56,203 nt of DNA from a virus (lineage: Duplodnaviria > Heunggongvirae > Uroviricota > Caudoviricetes), in the IMG/VR virus record IMGVR_UViG_2778260992_000008, positions 1 through 56,203 of that record. One strand, written 5' to 3'. The notes beneath the pieces were generated by a model. The model was given only the letters and a program-made list of their open reading frames with translations. It ran no database searches and had not been told where the DNA came from. Of the stretch, positions 2,537 to 8,623 are shown piece by piece (within the stretch, counting starts at the first letter, position 1; each line of letters opens with the position of its first letter). The position numbers were made by a program, and so were the translations under genes.

Positions 2537-3958
2537 TTAAAAAGATGCGTTGTTCTGGCTGTTTCGTGTGGAGAATCGACTTGCCGCCGGACGTTGTTGC
2601 ATTGACTGAATGCAAGCGGACGCCGCGCGGGCCTGGTCGCATGGGATGATGTTGCCGTTATCGTCAAACCGCTGGTAAACAGTCCCCGTTTTCCCGTGAC
2701 GGTTTTTTGAAACGATGATCTCCATATATTCGCGGGCAACCGATTGTTCGTTGTAGTAGCCGTCGCGGTAGACCATGATGATCCGGTCTGCGTCCTGTTC
2801 AAGATTACCGGAATCACGCAGATCAGAATTGTTCGGGCGCTTGTTCGGTCGTTCCTCAACGCGGCGGGATAATTGCGCCAGCGCCGCCACTGGCACGCGC
2901 AACTCTTTCGCCATCATTTTCAATGACCACGACAATTGCCCTACGGCGAGATCATGACGTTCGGCCTTAGCCAGCTTCATTAACCCGATGTAGTCAATCA
3001 TTACCATCCCCAGGTTAGGATGGTCCTGTTTCATCCGTTCGACGGTGGCGCGTATTTCCTCGACCGTTAACTGCGATGCGTCAACAATCCACACATCGAG
3101 ATCGGCAAGGGCACTCATTCCCTGGGCGACGTGCGCCCAACCTTCGTCATCCAGTTTTACCGGATTACGTAGGCAATCCGTTGATAAGTTCCCAGCGCCA
3201 GCGATAGCACGTTCAGTCATCTGATCGAGCGACATTTCAAGCGTGAACAGCAAAACGCCGACCCGTTGACCTTCGCCGCCAGGGTATGGACGTTCAGCCG
3301 CCGCGCGGGCAATTGCCAACGCTAACGCCGATTTACCAGACCCTGGGCGTCCGGCGATAAGCACCAGATCAGTAGCGTTAATGCCGCCTAACATTTCGTC
3401 GAGTGGTTCGATCCCTGTTTTGATGTTGTCAGAATTAACACCACATTCCATACGTTTGCTTAAGACTTCCGTATATTCCTGTACCGCGTCGCGCAACAGC
3501 ACCGGAATAATCTTGTCTTTCGTTGTCTTTAATTTTGAATAGCGGGAATCAAAATATTTCATCGTCTCCCTGACGGCTTCGAGCGTCCCGGTCTCCAGGT
3601 TGTAGCGGATATCGTCTATCAGTTCCAACATTTGCCGCCGCTGATATTCCTCCTGCAATAGAGCTGCGTACCCCTTAAGGTTGGCAGCAGATGGACACGA
3701 TCGCGCCGTTTGCATTAGCGGGACAAAATTTTCGTTACCGATTTCATCACCGACCATCAGCGCGTCAATAAGGTTTCTGTTTCTGGCTTGCGCCCGGATT
3801 ATCTCAAACGCTCGTTTATATAGTGGAATGGTGAAGACTTCAGGATCGAGCGTAGCAAGAACATCTTGCGCGTTAGGAGTAAGACCGCCCAACAGGAGGC
3901 CACCTATCACAGCCGCCTCCCGTTCCTGGCGTAATGAGTTTATTTGCTCAGTCACCAT
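2537..3958 (-). CDS. replicative DNA helicase, DnaB family
   Basis: 473 aa; Walker A GRPGSGKSALALAIA, DnaB-like N-terminal domain and RecA-like core motifs. Confidence 0.9.
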   Translation of the reverse strand: MVTEQINSLRQEREAAVIGGLLLGGLTPNAQDVLATLDPEVFTIPLYKRAFEIIRAQARNRNLIDALMVGDEIGNENFVPLMQTARSCPSAANLKGYAALLQEEYQRRQMLELIDDIRYNLETGTLEAVRETMKYFDSRYSKLKTTKDKIIPVLLRDAVQEYTEVLSKRMECGVNSDNIKTGIEPLDEMLGGINATDLVLIAGRPGSGKSALALAIARAAAERPYPGGEGQRVGVLLFTLEMSLDQMTERAIAGAGNLSTDCLRNPVKLDDEGWAHVAQGMSALADLDVWIVDASQLTVEEIRATVERMKQDHPNLGMVMIDYIGLMKLAKAERHDLAVGQLSWSLKMMAKELRVPVAALAQLSRRVEERPNKRPNNSDLRDSGNLEQDADRIIMVYRDGYYNEQSVAREYMEIIVSKNRHGKTGTVYQRFDDNGNIIPCDQARAASACIQSMQQRPAASRFSTRNSQNNASF

Positions 3959-3976
3959 TATGGTATTGCCTCCGGT

Positions 3977-5095
3977 TTACAAAATGGAATATTCAGGGTA
4001 ATAAACAAAGCGCCCAATTTCCCCATAATCCGGGCTGTAAATTATTACCGCTGCCAGCCGCCGCGACCGCCAGCCGCCATTTGTTGAATAAGCGTCTTTG
4101 CCCGCTAACGTGCCGTGATGTTCAACGATCCCTAACGATGTTTCTACGACAGATTGATGATGTAGGTGGCCCGTGTGAGCGTAAACCGCCGCCGACTTAC
4201 CGAAATCCTCCCGCCAGTCAGAAACGCAGGCAGCCAACAAATTTTCGGGTTTTTTGATAGTGTGCCCGTGGTGGTAAGCAAGGAATGTTTTTCCGTACTG
4301 TGTGTGGTGAACGATAGCAGGGGATACATCAACCGTCACGCGCGGTTCATCTTCATAAAAAGCCGCCAGCGCCGCACGTAGCCAAATCATCCCCGATTGG
4401 TCGTGGTTGCCGGATAATACCTGGATCTCGACATCCTTATGATTTAGTAACATCTTCCCGACCGCACGCCTGACCGACCGGATCGCCACATAAACAAGTT
4501 TTGCGTAGCGACTATCTTGATCAAGAATATGTCCGCTTGTCGGTGTAACCGGGATCATCCCATCAGAATGGAGTAGATCTCCGCCTAACAGCAAAACAGC
4601 CTTTTCAGACATTGGAGCAGCGCCTACAGCGTAGTCGAAGAAGTCATTTAGCACGCGTTCAGCGATCCCGGTGTCGTAGCTTTCGCCGCATTCCGCCCTA
4701 TGCGCAAGCGCCCCGATATGAAGATCGAATACCGGATAAAGGGCCAGGCTTTTTTGGAAATCAATCTCAGGAACTGGCACAGCCTCCGCGCGGGGTATCT
4801 CTTCCGTGAAAGCATCGCAAGCCGCTTGCATTAGCCTTTCCATTTCGTCTCGATCACGGGCCGTTTTAATCCAGCGCATAATCACATTGCCATCCTTATC
4901 AACGAGCAATGATTCACCGTTAACACCGAAGCCAGGAGCGCGACGCGTGGATATTAAACCGCGCTTCGCCAGCCGTGCGCCCAGGCGTTCGACGTTGCGT
5001 TTTGCCATTCCATATTCTTCGGCTATTTGCTTGTAAGTTTTCCCCTTATTGTATTCAGCGATCAGTTGTTCGTCGCTGATCTTTCTTTGTGACAT
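3977..5095 (-). CDS. HTH-domain protein fused to calcineurin-like metallophosphoesterase
   Basis: N-terminal HTH (KTYKQIAEEYGMAKRNVERL); phosphoesterase motifs FDLHIG, GGDLLHSDG, SGNHDQ, YHHGH, HTGHLHH; sits between replication organiser and helicase. Confidence 0.6.
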   Translation of the reverse strand: MSQRKISDEQLIAEYNKGKTYKQIAEEYGMAKRNVERLGARLAKRGLISTRRAPGFGVNGESLLVDKDGNVIMRWIKTARDRDEMERLMQAACDAFTEEIPRAEAVPVPEIDFQKSLALYPVFDLHIGALAHRAECGESYDTGIAERVLNDFFDYAVGAAPMSEKAVLLLGGDLLHSDGMIPVTPTSGHILDQDSRYAKLVYVAIRSVRRAVGKMLLNHKDVEIQVLSGNHDQSGMIWLRAALAAFYEDEPRVTVDVSPAIVHHTQYGKTFLAYHHGHTIKKPENLLAACVSDWREDFGKSAAVYAHTGHLHHQSVVETSLGIVEHHGTLAGKDAYSTNGGWRSRRLAAVIIYSPDYGEIGRFVYYPEYSIL

Positions 5096-5272
5096 AACGT
5101 TATTCCCTCCGGTTCACGGAATGAGTATTTATTCATAAATAACTATTTTTATTAACATGGATTTTCCGGTGACAAAAAAAGTCATCGGTGATAAATCAAT
5201 AACTTACGCAAATTAAAAATAACTACTTAATAAATAACTAATCGTATACATTATAGTTTACATTTTGTATAT

Positions 5273-6184
5273 TCATTGACAGCAAACAATCTCTTTATAT
5301 GTTTCTTCTACCATGTCGAAAACTTCAGGCCTGTAATAAAAAAATTCTTCGCTACCGCTAAATTTTACAGGAAAGTTAATTTTATAATTGCTAAAAGCCT
5401 TATGCATCGTTCTTTCTAATTCATATATATTTTCGGTTGGTCCATATAGCGTTTTCACGATATGCAAATCAGGAATTATAACGCCTGCTTTATGTGCGCT
5501 TCTTAATACCTGATTTCTTCGCTCGTTCTCCTTAACACTTACACCTATTTTCATTTGTGTAGGTACTTCCAGATCATCAACCATGATGTAAAGTTTTCCG
5601 TGATCGTGGGATAAAAAACCGCGTTTACCGCATTTCGGGCAACCGTGCCCGCATTTAAGGTGACTAGGCTTTGCTAACCACTTGTGATTACAAACTTTAC
5701 AGCGACACAATACCTTCTTCGCATCTCCGGTAATTTTCCCTAAAACTTCAACATCATGATTAGCCTTAACAATATTTGCAACTTGTTCTTTGTGTGTTAA
5801 TGTTGCTTTTAATCTCGCGCATTTCGGGCAACCGTGCCCGCATTTAAGGGCATTAGGTATAGACGACCATTCATGTCTACAAACCTTGCATCGACATAAC
5901 ACTTTCGTTTTGTCTCCTGTTATTTCTCCTGTAACTTCAACATCAGGATTAACCTTAGCAATGGCTACAACCTGTTCTTCGTGTGTTAACTTCGCATTTC
6001 CAGCGCATTTTGGACAACCCTGACCTCGCTTGAGGTTGCAAGGTGTAGGCGACCATTCATGTCTACAAACCTTGCATCTACATGTGACTTTTGTTTTATT
6101 GCCAGTAATTTCCCCGATCACTTCAACATCAGGATTGACGTCAGCAATAACTGCAACCTGTTCTTCGTGTGTTAACTTTCTCAT
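5273..6184 (-). CDS. triple zinc-ribbon repeat protein with C-terminal T5orf172/GIY-YIG-like domain
   Basis: Three ~47-aa repeats (LTHEEQV..NPDVEV.GEITG.KTKV.CRCKVCRHEWS...GCPKC); C-terminal KLYIMVDD...ENIYELERTMH...SGSEEFF; AT-rich; start 6184 chosen (ORF extends to 6226). Confidence 0.55.
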   Translation of the reverse strand: MRKLTHEEQVAVIADVNPDVEVIGEITGNKTKVTCRCKVCRHEWSPTPCNLKRGQGCPKCAGNAKLTHEEQVVAIAKVNPDVEVTGEITGDKTKVLCRCKVCRHEWSSIPNALKCGHGCPKCARLKATLTHKEQVANIVKANHDVEVLGKITGDAKKVLCRCKVCNHKWLAKPSHLKCGHGCPKCGKRGFLSHDHGKLYIMVDDLEVPTQMKIGVSVKENERRNQVLRSAHKAGVIIPDLHIVKTLYGPTENIYELERTMHKAFSNYKINFPVKFSGSEEFFYYRPEVFDMVEETYKEIVCCQ

Positions 6185-6324
6185 CGATCCAACTCCACAA
6201 AACGCACCAGACGCTATACAACGCAAAATTCCACCGCGTAACCCACTTGTAAGGGTGCAGTGTCTTTTTCGCGCCAGAGACGCTATCAGGTGGCTAATTT
6301 TCGATTTTTAAGGTGACAGGGTAG

Positions 6325-6426
6325 TTATGGATTAACTAGCAGATACAAACCGCCGAACAAAGCGACATTAACAGCGATAGCCATCGCGATCGCGAAAGCC
6401 AGGGCGAACATGCGTTTACCGTTCAT
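6325..6426 (-). CDS. small hydrophobic peptide (33 aa)
   Basis: MNGKRMFALAFAIAMAIAVNVALFGGLYLLVNP; RBS AGAGAGGA 8 nt upstream; not in track (<60 aa). Confidence 0.3.
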   Translation of the reverse strand: MNGKRMFALAFAIAMAIAVNVALFGGLYLLVNP

Positions 6427-6558: not shown

Positions 6559-7668
6559 TCAAAGAGCGCCAGCGCGTGTATCACGTAGCGTTTTTGGTTT
6601 AAGCAGGAAATCAAGTGTCGCAGTAAAGCCATTGCCGAAGTAAAAATCTGAAGCCGTGTTTTTGAACGCCTCAAAGTAAGCAATAAAGCCAGTGATGCTT
6701 TTGTCTTTCAGGTAGTCAGTGAACGCATAGATCTTGCGTTCCAAATCCCGATCCAGTTCGGCAGGTGGTAACAGGCCGTCGAATGTCTGGTTAAATGCTG
6801 ATACCACGACAGCAGCGTTAACAGTAGCTGTAACTCTTCGCCATTGTTCAGCATCAGCCAGATACCCATCAAACTTAGTTACCCGGCAAATGTTGATAGG
6901 CTTAGGTACTCCACTCCGGCTACGCCATTGCGTTAAAGCCCATTCAATTACTAATGTGATCTCATCCTCCGTATATGCCTTACGTGTTTTTGTTTCTGTC
7001 AGTAGTTCGATGAATGGCTTCGTATCACGACATTTGCATCCTGCTTTTTCGTTGTAGAAAGCTAAGCAACGGTAAGCCGCCTCGCTTATCTGAAAGTCAC
7101 CGTCCTGATTGACCGTTTTTTGTCCATTTTCGCTAATACACGAAGTGTATATATCTTTTTCTATTTCTTCTTCTACTTCTTCTTCTACTTCTAATCCATG
7201 GCTATGACATGGTTGTGCCATGGCTGCATCATGGTTGTGCCATGGTTTTTCTTTTTCTGTATCTTGTGAATTATTTACTTCCACTAAAGGATTATCTAAC
7301 TTTTTATTTTTTTTGACGTTTAGCCTTTTAATTGCTTCCCTAAATTCGCTTTTTGATGAAGCCATTGATTGATCAAGTCTTTTTGCTAACGACAAGCATC
7401 TTACAACGCCATGCGAGCAATCGAACAAGCCAACTTCGATGAAGTATCTCATCATTTCTTCTACACGTTTCGGACTTGATCCGACATTACGGGCAATAAT
7501 TCTTGCGTCGTGTTTTAGTTCGAATGTCAGATTATGTTGATCTACTTCGTAGGCTATTAACTCGATGCAGTACCAATAAAGGCCGTATCCTTCCAGACCA
7601 TAATCAAGCAAAACGTTTTGAAGTTTTTCATCGCGGTTCGCATCGCTATCATGCTTAAACCACTTCAT
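6559..7668 (-). CDS. replication initiation / replisome organiser protein
   Basis: N-terminus MKWFKHDSDANRDEKLQNVLLDYGLEGYGLYWYCIELIA resembles phage replisome-organiser N-terminal domains; strong RBS AGGAGAAAAGCAA-ATG; first gene of minus-strand arm. Confidence 0.7.
   Translation of the reverse strand: MKWFKHDSDANRDEKLQNVLLDYGLEGYGLYWYCIELIAYEVDQHNLTFELKHDARIIARNVGSSPKRVEEMMRYFIEVGLFDCSHGVVRCLSLAKRLDQSMASSKSEFREAIKRLNVKKNKKLDNPLVEVNNSQDTEKEKPWHNHDAAMAQPCHSHGLEVEEEVEEEIEKDIYTSCISENGQKTVNQDGDFQISEAAYRCLAFYNEKAGCKCRDTKPFIELLTETKTRKAYTEDEITLVIEWALTQWRSRSGVPKPINICRVTKFDGYLADAEQWRRVTATVNAAVVVSAFNQTFDGLLPPAELDRDLERKIYAFTDYLKDKSITGFIAYFEAFKNTASDFYFGNGFTATLDFLLKPKTLRDTRAGAL
7160..7330. repeat. iteron-like direct repeats plus AT-rich tract inside the replication gene (candidate origin)
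   Basis: CATGGTTGTGCCATGG at 7208-7223 and 7230-7245; CTTCTTCTACTT x2 upstream; AT-rich run 7246-7330. Confidence 0.45.
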
Positions 7669-7975: not shown

Positions 7976-8623
7976 ATGAAAACAAAATGGTATGACTTAG
8001 CAAAACAACTCATGCGGGCGCAAGGTATGAGCCAGGATTCATTGGCGGACCTGATGGGGATCACGAAAGGCGGCTTATCGCACTGGCTGAACGGTCGCCG
8101 TGAGCCAAATCTTAATGATATTGCGCGGATCATGCGGGCGCTTGGTCGTCGGCAGTTTACGGTCACACATGATGGGATGGTTATTGATGATTCACTTTCT
8201 AATACACTGCCGGGAGCGCCACCGCTCGACGTAGGGCGTTATCCGGTGATTGACTGGAAAGACGCAGGAAACTACATGGAAGAAGCAAAACGCGCATCAT
8301 TACCGCACGTTAACACTAGCGTGATTTGTTCGGATGATAGTTATTGGCTGGTTGCAAAAGGTGAATCGATGAACGCGCCGCAAGGATTGAGCATCCCGGC
8401 GGGAACGATGATACTTGTTGATCCACACGCGCCAGCTATTGACGGCAAACTGGTTATAGCCCAATTGGAGGAAGGGCAAACGCCGACGTTTAAACAGTTG
8501 ATTATTGATGGAGGTCAAAGGCTTTTACGCTCGCTTAATCCGTTGTATCCACCAATCCCGCTAAATCCTGAATCAAAAATTATTGGCGTGGTGGTGGACG
8601 CGAAGATCGTAAACCTGCCATAA
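7976..8623 (+). CDS. cI-like repressor, HTH plus S24 LexA-type peptidase domain
   Basis: N-terminal HTH (SQDSLADLMGITKGGLSHWLNGRR); C-terminal GESM Ser and FKQL Lys dyad; divergent from replication genes. Confidence 0.85.
   Translation: MKTKWYDLAKQLMRAQGMSQDSLADLMGITKGGLSHWLNGRREPNLNDIARIMRALGRRQFTVTHDGMVIDDSLSNTLPGAPPLDVGRYPVIDWKDAGNYMEEAKRASLPHVNTSVICSDDSYWLVAKGESMNAPQGLSIPAGTMILVDPHAPAIDGKLVIAQLEEGQTPTFKQLIIDGGQRLLRSLNPLYPPIPLNPESKIIGVVVDAKIVNLP

Follow-up and report, generated by a model that had tools for sequence, protein, structure and literature searches.

Does the AT-rich stretch at positions 5273-6426 of the phage genome IMGVR_UViG_2778260992_000008 (IMG/VR; Caudoviricetes), which lies among the replication genes and encodes a Cys-rich protein and a small hydrophobic peptide, represent a mobile, nuclease-like selfish element, as an original prediction from the sequence had it, and where would such an element begin and end? 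The window, i.e., the whole stretch of 56,203 nucleotides (nt) analysed here, comes from an mEp021-like (mEpimmI) temperate coliphage (~85% nucleotide identity), a member of a Nus-dependent, temperate group that has been described before (PMC11893012). We hold with moderate confidence that positions 5273-6184 encode a free-standing homing-endonuclease-type gene of the T5orf172 family, within the GIY-YIG superfamily. This reading is built on the architecture of the protein, the predicted fold of its C-terminal domain, the conservation of catalytic residues, a polymorphism precise to the limits of one open reading frame (ORF), and the occurrence of relatives of the gene in unrelated phages, at sites typical of homing endonucleases.

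The gene occupies positions 5273..6184 on the minus strand, as do all other features described below unless stated otherwise, and encodes 303 amino acids (aa) between an ATG at 6184-6182 and a TGA at 5275-5273. A mechanical ORF call had placed its start at TTG 6226, giving an intact frame of 317 aa on the same strand with the same end at 5273. Since all homologues open with MRKLTHEEQ, which corresponds to ATG 6184, the start was reassigned to this codon, 8 nt upstream of which lies a GGAG. The 303-aa protein has 728 homologous protein clusters and matches PHROG 681 ('endonuclease') at 1e-54; an NCBIfam search returned nothing meaningful, and tblastn found no paralogue of the gene elsewhere in the window. 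Some alleles already have names: that of mEp021 (AXN54131) is a 'putative zinc-ribbon domain-containing protein' in GenBank, and others are listed as 'GIY-YIG nuclease family protein' at NCBI.

Tandem Repeats Finder (TRF) detects a single array at 5629-6176, with a period of 186 bp, 2.9 copies and 76% matches (score 543), and self-BLAST of the array gives an E-value (E) of 1e-77, far above chance. Pfam recognises three DUF4379 treble-clef domains (2e-17) and, equally in three copies, CapR (3e-16), while DUF723 stays below threshold. The three tandem Cys-rich modules that had been predicted in one protein are thus confirmed, with other dimensions than expected: they had been described as near-identical units of ~47 aa (~141 bp) with a CxxC...CxxC pattern, and the repeat period is actually 62 aa (186 bp), modules span 62-64 aa, they are mutually 55-71% identical in protein and ~76-77% in DNA, and each carries the pattern CxCxxC-16-CxxC. 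Module 1 (5993..6184, residues 1-64, CRCKVC...CPKC) was delimited by Pfam DUF4379/CapR, TRF and module dissection; module 2 (5801..5992, residues 65-128) is 71% identical to it, and module 3 (5615..5800, residues 129-190) shares 55-62% of its residues with the other two and ~70% with the last module of the Vequintavirus homologue described below.

The number of modules ranges from 0 to 6 among 145 homologues, with a mode of 3. In the six-module allele of mEp021 (mEp021_12, L003:4138-5625), modules 5 and 6 are almost identical in protein sequence, which indicates a very recent tandem duplication in that array. A set of 359 unique modules shows hardly any variation in the framework (LTHEEQVAAIAKVNPxVEVLGEI...KVLCRCKVC.HEW...P..LK.G.GCPKC), and ~12 positions are hypervariable (24-28, 38, 42-44, 46-47, 50 and 52, with an entropy of 2.3-3.5 bits), several of which lie next to the short helix that separates the two Zn knuckles in the predicted model. 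No part of the protein evolves faster than the Zn modules. In a comparison of the window with LP-26, the ratio of non-synonymous to synonymous divergence (dN/dS) is 0.66 at the hypervariable positions and 0.09 in the framework, the former value being partly circular because the positions were picked for being variable. The four Cys of CapR are needed for DNA binding (PMC8096241), and the modules of the window protein would bind DNA as well. Their hypervariable residues, a handful per module, probably set the DNA specificity.

Residues 191-303 (5276..5614) form the T5orf172/GIY-YIG-like nuclease domain that had been predicted at the C-terminus. The prediction is upheld by Pfam, where T5orf172 (PF10544) scores 22.9 bits on the full protein and 25.2 on the isolated domain (gathering cut-off 20), and MUG113 scores 22.7 and 25.6, respectively (cut-off 22.3), and by the predicted fold. 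A sequence search of the PDB with the window protein gave nothing significant. The full-length AlphaFold 2 model (mean predicted local distance difference test, pLDDT, 86; predicted template modelling score, pTM, 0.41) behaves as beads on a string, and its Foldseek matches in the PDB are all weak (Slx1, E 0.23; DUF4379 mitoribosomal proteins), as befits a multi-domain protein with such a pTM, so the C-terminal domain was modelled separately. Alone, it reaches a pLDDT of 91 and a pTM of 0.81 and is predicted to adopt the alpha/beta fold that defines GIY-YIG proteins, a three-stranded sheet with flanking helices, resembling active GIY-YIG nucleases. Against viral models this domain has 184 Foldseek matches at E<=1e-3, mostly annotated as T5orf172, Hef-like or CapR-domain, among them ICP1 ORF88 (Odn) at E 1e-6.

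Eight residues of the domain are invariant across 38 homologues: G196, Y199, K212, G214, R222, E257, H261 and E280. In an hhalign comparison, E180 of Odn stands opposite E257 (in YELERTMH) and R148 opposite R222; a first guess that had put the catalytic Glu in 'GSEEFF' was dropped on the basis of this alignment. In Odn, the substitution E180A abolishes activity in vitro and in vivo (PMC8263062). The domain evolves with a dN/dS of 0.22-0.25, which implies purifying selection. Because R222 and E257 align with the catalytic residues of Odn, are invariant in the homologues, and belong to a domain with low dN/dS, the active site looks intact and under purifying selection, and by analogy with Odn the T5orf172 domain would be an active nuclease.

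The gene lies in a slot between a short membrane ORF and a phosphoesterase gene, the content of which varies among relatives. MagusPhagus and mEp010 have an empty slot, mEp013 a 178-aa allele with one module (mEp013_12), and mEp021 a 495-aa allele with six modules (mEp021_12); the latter two are direct same-slot alleles of the three-module gene described here, and their nuclease domains are 87-88% identical to that of the window at the nucleotide level. In mEp515 and mEp554 the slot is taken by a Bro-N+ANT gene, and in mEp044 by Rha+ANT plus Bro-N+DUF559-like genes. Such other cargoes (Bro-N+ANT, Rha+ANT, Bro-N+DUF559-like and a 351-aa DUF559 protein) were located at L004:1938-2681, L006:2016-2759, L005:2030-3384 and L011:1174-2229 of our comparison loci, and the DUF559 fusions among them seem to form another family of nuclease-type cassettes. 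This prophage region was also found in 35 complete genomes of Escherichia coli, with the Zn-ribbon gene in 12 (two pairs of which look like duplicate assemblies), an empty slot in 7, Rha, BRO, Ant, DUF559 or other cargo in 8, and a partial match in the remaining 8. The slot is therefore a general cassette-exchange hotspot, which also accommodates non-nuclease Bro-N/Rha/ANT genes. A 51-aa ORF annotated at empty sites is probably not a gene: it spans the junction and overlaps the start of the next gene.

Comparison with the relatives lacking the gene, proposed at the outset as the way to define the insertion, gives clean junctions in MagusPhagus, mEp010 and the 7 E. coli prophages and places the boundaries at ~5273-6210. 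In the junction alignments, homology to empty-site relatives stops on the left at 6211|6210, at the edge of a leader (6193..6210) that contains the Shine-Dalgarno sequence GGAG (6196-6193). The ribosome-binding segment GCGTTTT(G/A)(T/C)GGAG is common to all cargo types and to the empty site, so this boundary is ambiguous by ~15 nt. On the right, homology resumes right after the stop codon, allowing for a 119-bp spacer. The right end of the cassette (5256..5278) consists of the stop codon and a conserved post-stop motif, CAATGAATATACAAAATGTAAAC, which resembles AATAAATATACATTCTGTAAAC of the empty site, and the motif ATATACAxxxTGTAAAC is reused by all cargo types. Since the junctions coincide with the ends of the ORF, and every cargo reuses the ribosome-binding segment and the post-stop motif, the cassette is essentially one ORF.

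Two elements that had seemed part of the insertion fall outside it. The 33-codon hydrophobic ORF exists as predicted (6325..6426; peptide MNGKRMFALAFAIAMAIAVNVALFGGLYLLVNP) and encodes a single membrane helix without a family match in Pfam or PHROG searches. All seven related phages have it as an annotated gene, whatever their cargo, and in the empty-site phage MagusPhagus it is identical at 33/33 positions; it is thus a backbone gene, which rules it out as a component of the insertion. The second element is the AT-rich 119-bp spacer itself (5137..5255, GC content ~0.23), which has an imperfect copy of the post-stop motif on either side, the two forming a direct repeat (5256-5278 and 5112-5136). 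The phages mEp013 and mEp021 and 9 of the 12 gene-bearing E. coli records lack the spacer, and LP-26-E1-261, MLI107 and E. coli M15 carry it. In the last of these the cargo is the 351-aa DUF559 nuclease, and homology to the spacer starts right after its stop codon, which rules the spacer out as part of the nuclease cassette. Its distribution marks it as an independent backbone indel. Searched as a functional RNA, it has no Rfam match and no stable fold (z = -0.39), and its promoter and terminator signals do not exceed chance (3 promoter-like sites against 3.9 in shuffles). It contains a short hairpin at 5166-5190 with one apparently compensatory change relative to LP-26, too weak to support a claim. 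The AT-rich island of the original prediction is accordingly composite. The drop in GC is real: the nuclease ORF has a GC content of 0.396 and the 3' intergenic stretch 0.26, compared with 0.474 for the whole window and 0.51-0.52 for the neighbouring genes. Within the ORF, however, the nuclease-domain part is at 0.351 and the Zn-module part, at 0.42, is mildly AT-rich at most, and the AT-richest stretch is the separate spacer.

Several observations suggest that the gene has moved. When the window is paired with mEp013, mEp021 and LP-26, the nuclease domain has a synonymous divergence (dS) of 0.43-0.48, and the adjacent phosphoesterase gene in the same pairs one of 0.80, 0.95 and 0.62, respectively (range 0.58-1.05), so the nuclease domain seems more recent than the DNA around it. 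MagusPhagus is the closest relative on the left side of the cassette (membrane ORF, 95%) and LP-26 on the right (91%); judged by these affinities, the cassette sits at a mosaic boundary, a pattern of genetic exchange that is the title theme of an earlier study (PMC10448857). Virulent rV5-like phages (Vequintavirus) have homologues to which part of the gene aligns at 68-73% nucleotide identity. That of WalterGehring (bas51_0186, 330 aa, 48% identical) lies directly downstream of an intron-split nrdD, and its last Zn module plus nuclease domain are ~70% identical to those of the window protein at the amino acid level. A site beside an intron-split nrdD is a classic position for homing endonucleases. 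Frameshifted or truncated alleles are found in the protein database (P0134, P0143, P0144, plus nuclease-only calls of 103 aa), and such decayed alleles fit the life cycle of homing endonucleases.

The known systems that most resemble this gene are T5orf172 homing endonuclease genes with arrays of CapR, DUF723 or DUF4379 modules, found next to the replisome genes of ICP1 and other phages (PMC10448857, PMC8096241). They include ICP1 gp165 and gp174 (Barth, Dunham & Seed 2023, PMC10448857; Netter et al. 2021, PMC8096241). Like them, the window gene combines tandem N-terminal Zn fingers with a C-terminal T5orf172 domain, varies in module number by recombination between repeats, is free-standing beside essential (replisome) genes at a boundary of genetic exchange, and is polymorphic in presence among close relatives; the class asks for at least one N-terminal Zn module, and there are three here. 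The differences are that its host is a temperate coliphage rather than a virulent vibriophage and that its slot is shared with Bro-N/Rha/ANT cassettes; homing is presumed in both. In sequence the resemblance is distant, with marginal BLASTP matches to homing endonucleases of the ICP1 gp121 type (E 0.05-0.25). Odn (ICP1 gp88) is an origin-directed T5orf172 nuclease with a demonstrated anti-satellite role (Barth et al. 2021, PMC8263062). It shares with the window protein the catalytic domain and the aligned Glu and Arg, but its targeting relies on a RepA_N domain borrowed from the satellite, in the place of which the window protein has its three Zn modules; the N-terminus of the latter consists wholly of these, and RepA_N has no Pfam match at E<=1. 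CapR, the repressor of the capsid operon encoded by the satellite PLE, has the same four-Cys Zn module, in single copy and without a nuclease domain, and a domesticated repressor of this type is ruled out by the intact, conserved T5orf172 domain.

I-TevI and the Seg proteins of T4 are equally modular, with beads on a string, and are free-standing intergenic genes beside essential ones. In the window protein the order is reversed, with the nuclease at the C-terminus, the first Tyr is kept (LY199I), and the second motif is KIG (K212-I-G) instead of YIG; furthermore, I-TevI binds through a Zn finger, a minor-groove helix and a helix-turn-helix (HTH), not through an array of Zn modules. The C-terminal nuclease and the KIG motif rule out membership in the I-TevI/Seg-type class, and the gene is filed under the T5orf172 branch. 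The Vequintavirus protein bas51_0186, annotated as a 'putative homing endonuclease', differs in being encoded by a virulent phage of 140 kb and in having first modules of a different subtype. Membership in a known defence system was rejected, as the best PADLOC match (PDC-S57, E 0.0013, 16 bits) covers the T5orf172 region only.

If the gene is a homing endonuclease, it would act as follows. The three tandem treble-clef Zn modules, of the CapR/DUF4379 type, would read a DNA sequence in the manner of beads on a string, and the C-terminal T5orf172 domain would cut DNA nearby through the Arg222/Glu257 active site. In mixed infections or superinfected lysogens, related mEp021-like genomes without the gene, or with a sensitive flank, would be cut, and recombinational repair of the cut would then give them a copy of the cassette together with neighbouring DNA. 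The gene would thereby be kept in its one-ORF slot, with the membrane ORF on one side and the metallophosphoesterase and helicase genes on the other. A number of points weigh against this. Cleavage, a target and homing are what we infer for the window protein and the mEp021-group alleles; the hhalign match to Odn is weak by itself (E 0.0015, probability 17%), and the dS comparison rests on just 113 AT-rich codons. All occurrences of the nuclease domain among 5426 complete E. coli genomes are in this slot (12/12), with nothing to suggest that it has reached other sites within prophages, and the flanks of gene-bearing and gene-free genomes (seven phages) have no consistent pattern of co-conversion or target immunity. 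The same slot also takes Bro-N+ANT and Rha+ANT genes, which are not nucleases, so ordinary recombination at conserved flanks could yield the polymorphism without one. The prediction of a mobile, nuclease-like selfish element thus stands in that the cassette is of nuclease type and looks mobile, whereas the presence or absence of the gene alone is no proof that the nuclease drives its mobility. Finally, same-slot alleles differ strongly in module number (1, 3 and 6) and in presumed specificity residues, and such divergent arrays in one slot are odd if all target one site.

This last oddity is where another use of the same activity comes in, which is possible if on balance doubtful. The nuclease may have been domesticated, or 'weaponised', against rivals, for instance other phages in the same cell, resident prophages or satellites, as Odn was, and the slot would then be a hotspot of competition and counter-defence. 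Odn is a T5orf172 nuclease redirected against a parasite (PMC8263062), and Barth et al. proposed the same for the RepA_N-T5orf172 proteins of coliphages (PMC10448857). The fast-evolving positions of the Zn modules (dN/dS 0.66 vs 0.09) and copy numbers from 1 to 6 have the look of an arms race, whereas one fixed homing site would not predict such variation, nor that very different arrays occupy one site. The alternative cargo, antirepressor-like Bro-N/Rha/ANT genes and Bro-N/DUF559 nucleases, is typical of genes involved in conflicts, and the gene is never outside this slot in the E. coli genomes. Yet no candidate target element could be pinpointed, the PADLOC matches are marginal (0.0013), the protein has neither RepA_N nor any other borrowed specificity domain, degenerate and frameshifted alleles suit a selfish gene better than a beneficial one, and the Vequintavirus homologue is at a textbook homing-endonuclease site.

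Two further explanations are less likely than either homing or a weapon. We think it quite improbable that the protein is a non-catalytic DNA-binding regulator, although CapR, built from a Zn module of this kind, represses transcription (PMC8096241), UniProt names the C-terminal domain 'T5 Orf172 DNA-binding', and the gene is inside the early replication operon, beside the initiator and candidate origin repeats. CapR lacks the T5orf172 domain, and here this domain is under purifying selection, keeps invariant the Arg and Glu that align with the catalytic residues of Odn, and is predicted to fold like active GIY-YIG nucleases; moreover, the gene is dispensable, as the slot is empty in viable phages. 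Least credible to us is that the gene belongs to the ancestral backbone of the replication module and was lost or replaced in some lineages, with no insertion and no mobility. It would account for the single locus, for an allele divergence (~73-88% nucleotide identity) comparable in magnitude to the backbone's, and for boundaries that coincide with ORF ends, as expected from recombinational deletion or replacement. It fits poorly with a nuclease-domain dS below that of its neighbour, close homologues beside nrdD in unrelated virulent phages, a GC content 8-12 points under that of the neighbouring genes, flanks with different closest relatives, and a family that belongs as a whole to a class with documented mobility features. 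The gene is also missing at the locus in some relatives, and its C-terminal domain is predicted to have a nuclease-like fold; the opposite on both counts had been named in advance as what would speak against a selfish element. The homing-endonuclease-type gene is therefore the reading that we retain.

The early operon around the cassette runs, on the minus strand, from an O-like replication initiator (6559-7668; Lin1244_N, PHROG 'replication initiation') through the 33-codon ORF and the nuclease ORF to a metallophosphoesterase (3977-5095) and a DnaB-type helicase (2537-3958), with a LexA/cI-type repressor (7976-8623) encoded divergently to it. The product of the metallophosphoesterase gene, downstream of the slot, has 372 aa, carries this name in RefSeq, matches PHROG 704 ('DNA repair exonuclease') at 5e-141, and has a weak signal of an N-terminal HTH. 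The first ~100 nt of the gene set the window apart from all relatives by several changes, mostly synonymous, which may or may not reflect a conversion tract or immunity of a target site. Inside the initiator gene, positions 7154-7247 contain tandem DNA repeats of period 11/22 (x4.7; CCATGGTTGTG-type) and of period 12 (x3.2), which encode part of the initiator's acidic/His-rich linker. As putative iterons, by analogy with lambda O, they are candidates for the replication origin and lie ~1 kb away from the nuclease cassette. An HNH 'homing endonuclease' gene separates the phosphoesterase and DnaB genes in mEp021, mEp515 and mEp010 (L003:2481-2984, L004:281-835 and L007:945-1535) and is missing from mEp013, mEp044, mEp554, MagusPhagus and the window, where the gap is 18 bp (3958-3977). 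The operon thus has another endonuclease polymorphism, independent of the first.

The architecture, the repeat dynamics and the genomic placement of the gene are already known from ICP1 and other phages (PMC8096241, PMC8263062, PMC10448857). What is modestly new is the temperate coliphage host group, the sharing of the slot with Bro/Rha/ANT cassettes, and the sharply localised hypervariability of the modules. The last of these raises an idea that we consider unlikely, namely that the 62-aa Zn modules form a programmable DNA-reading array akin to those of TALE or C2H2 proteins. It is suggested by the near-invariant framework, the ~12 clustered hypervariable positions, and the growth and shrinkage of arrays within a range of 1 to 6 modules. 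If true, with each module reading a few bp, this nuclease family would carry a simple recognition code that would allow quick retargeting in arms races between phages or between phages and satellites, and that would be engineerable.

Homing endonucleases go unmentioned in the published description of the mEpimmI group (PMC11893012). The gene analysed here extends the recently established class of T5orf172 homing endonucleases with Zn arrays from virulent phages (ICP1, T5-like and rV5-like) to these temperate gut coliphages, a prevalent group, and 'putative T5orf172-family homing endonuclease' would be a better annotation for it than 'zinc-ribbon domain-containing protein'. The slot is a compact natural experiment, as in phages that are already cultured it is empty, holds alleles of one, three or six modules, or holds Bro-N, Rha, ANT or DUF559 genes. 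As a result, homing, marker exclusion and the specificity of single modules should be directly testable in E. coli K-12.

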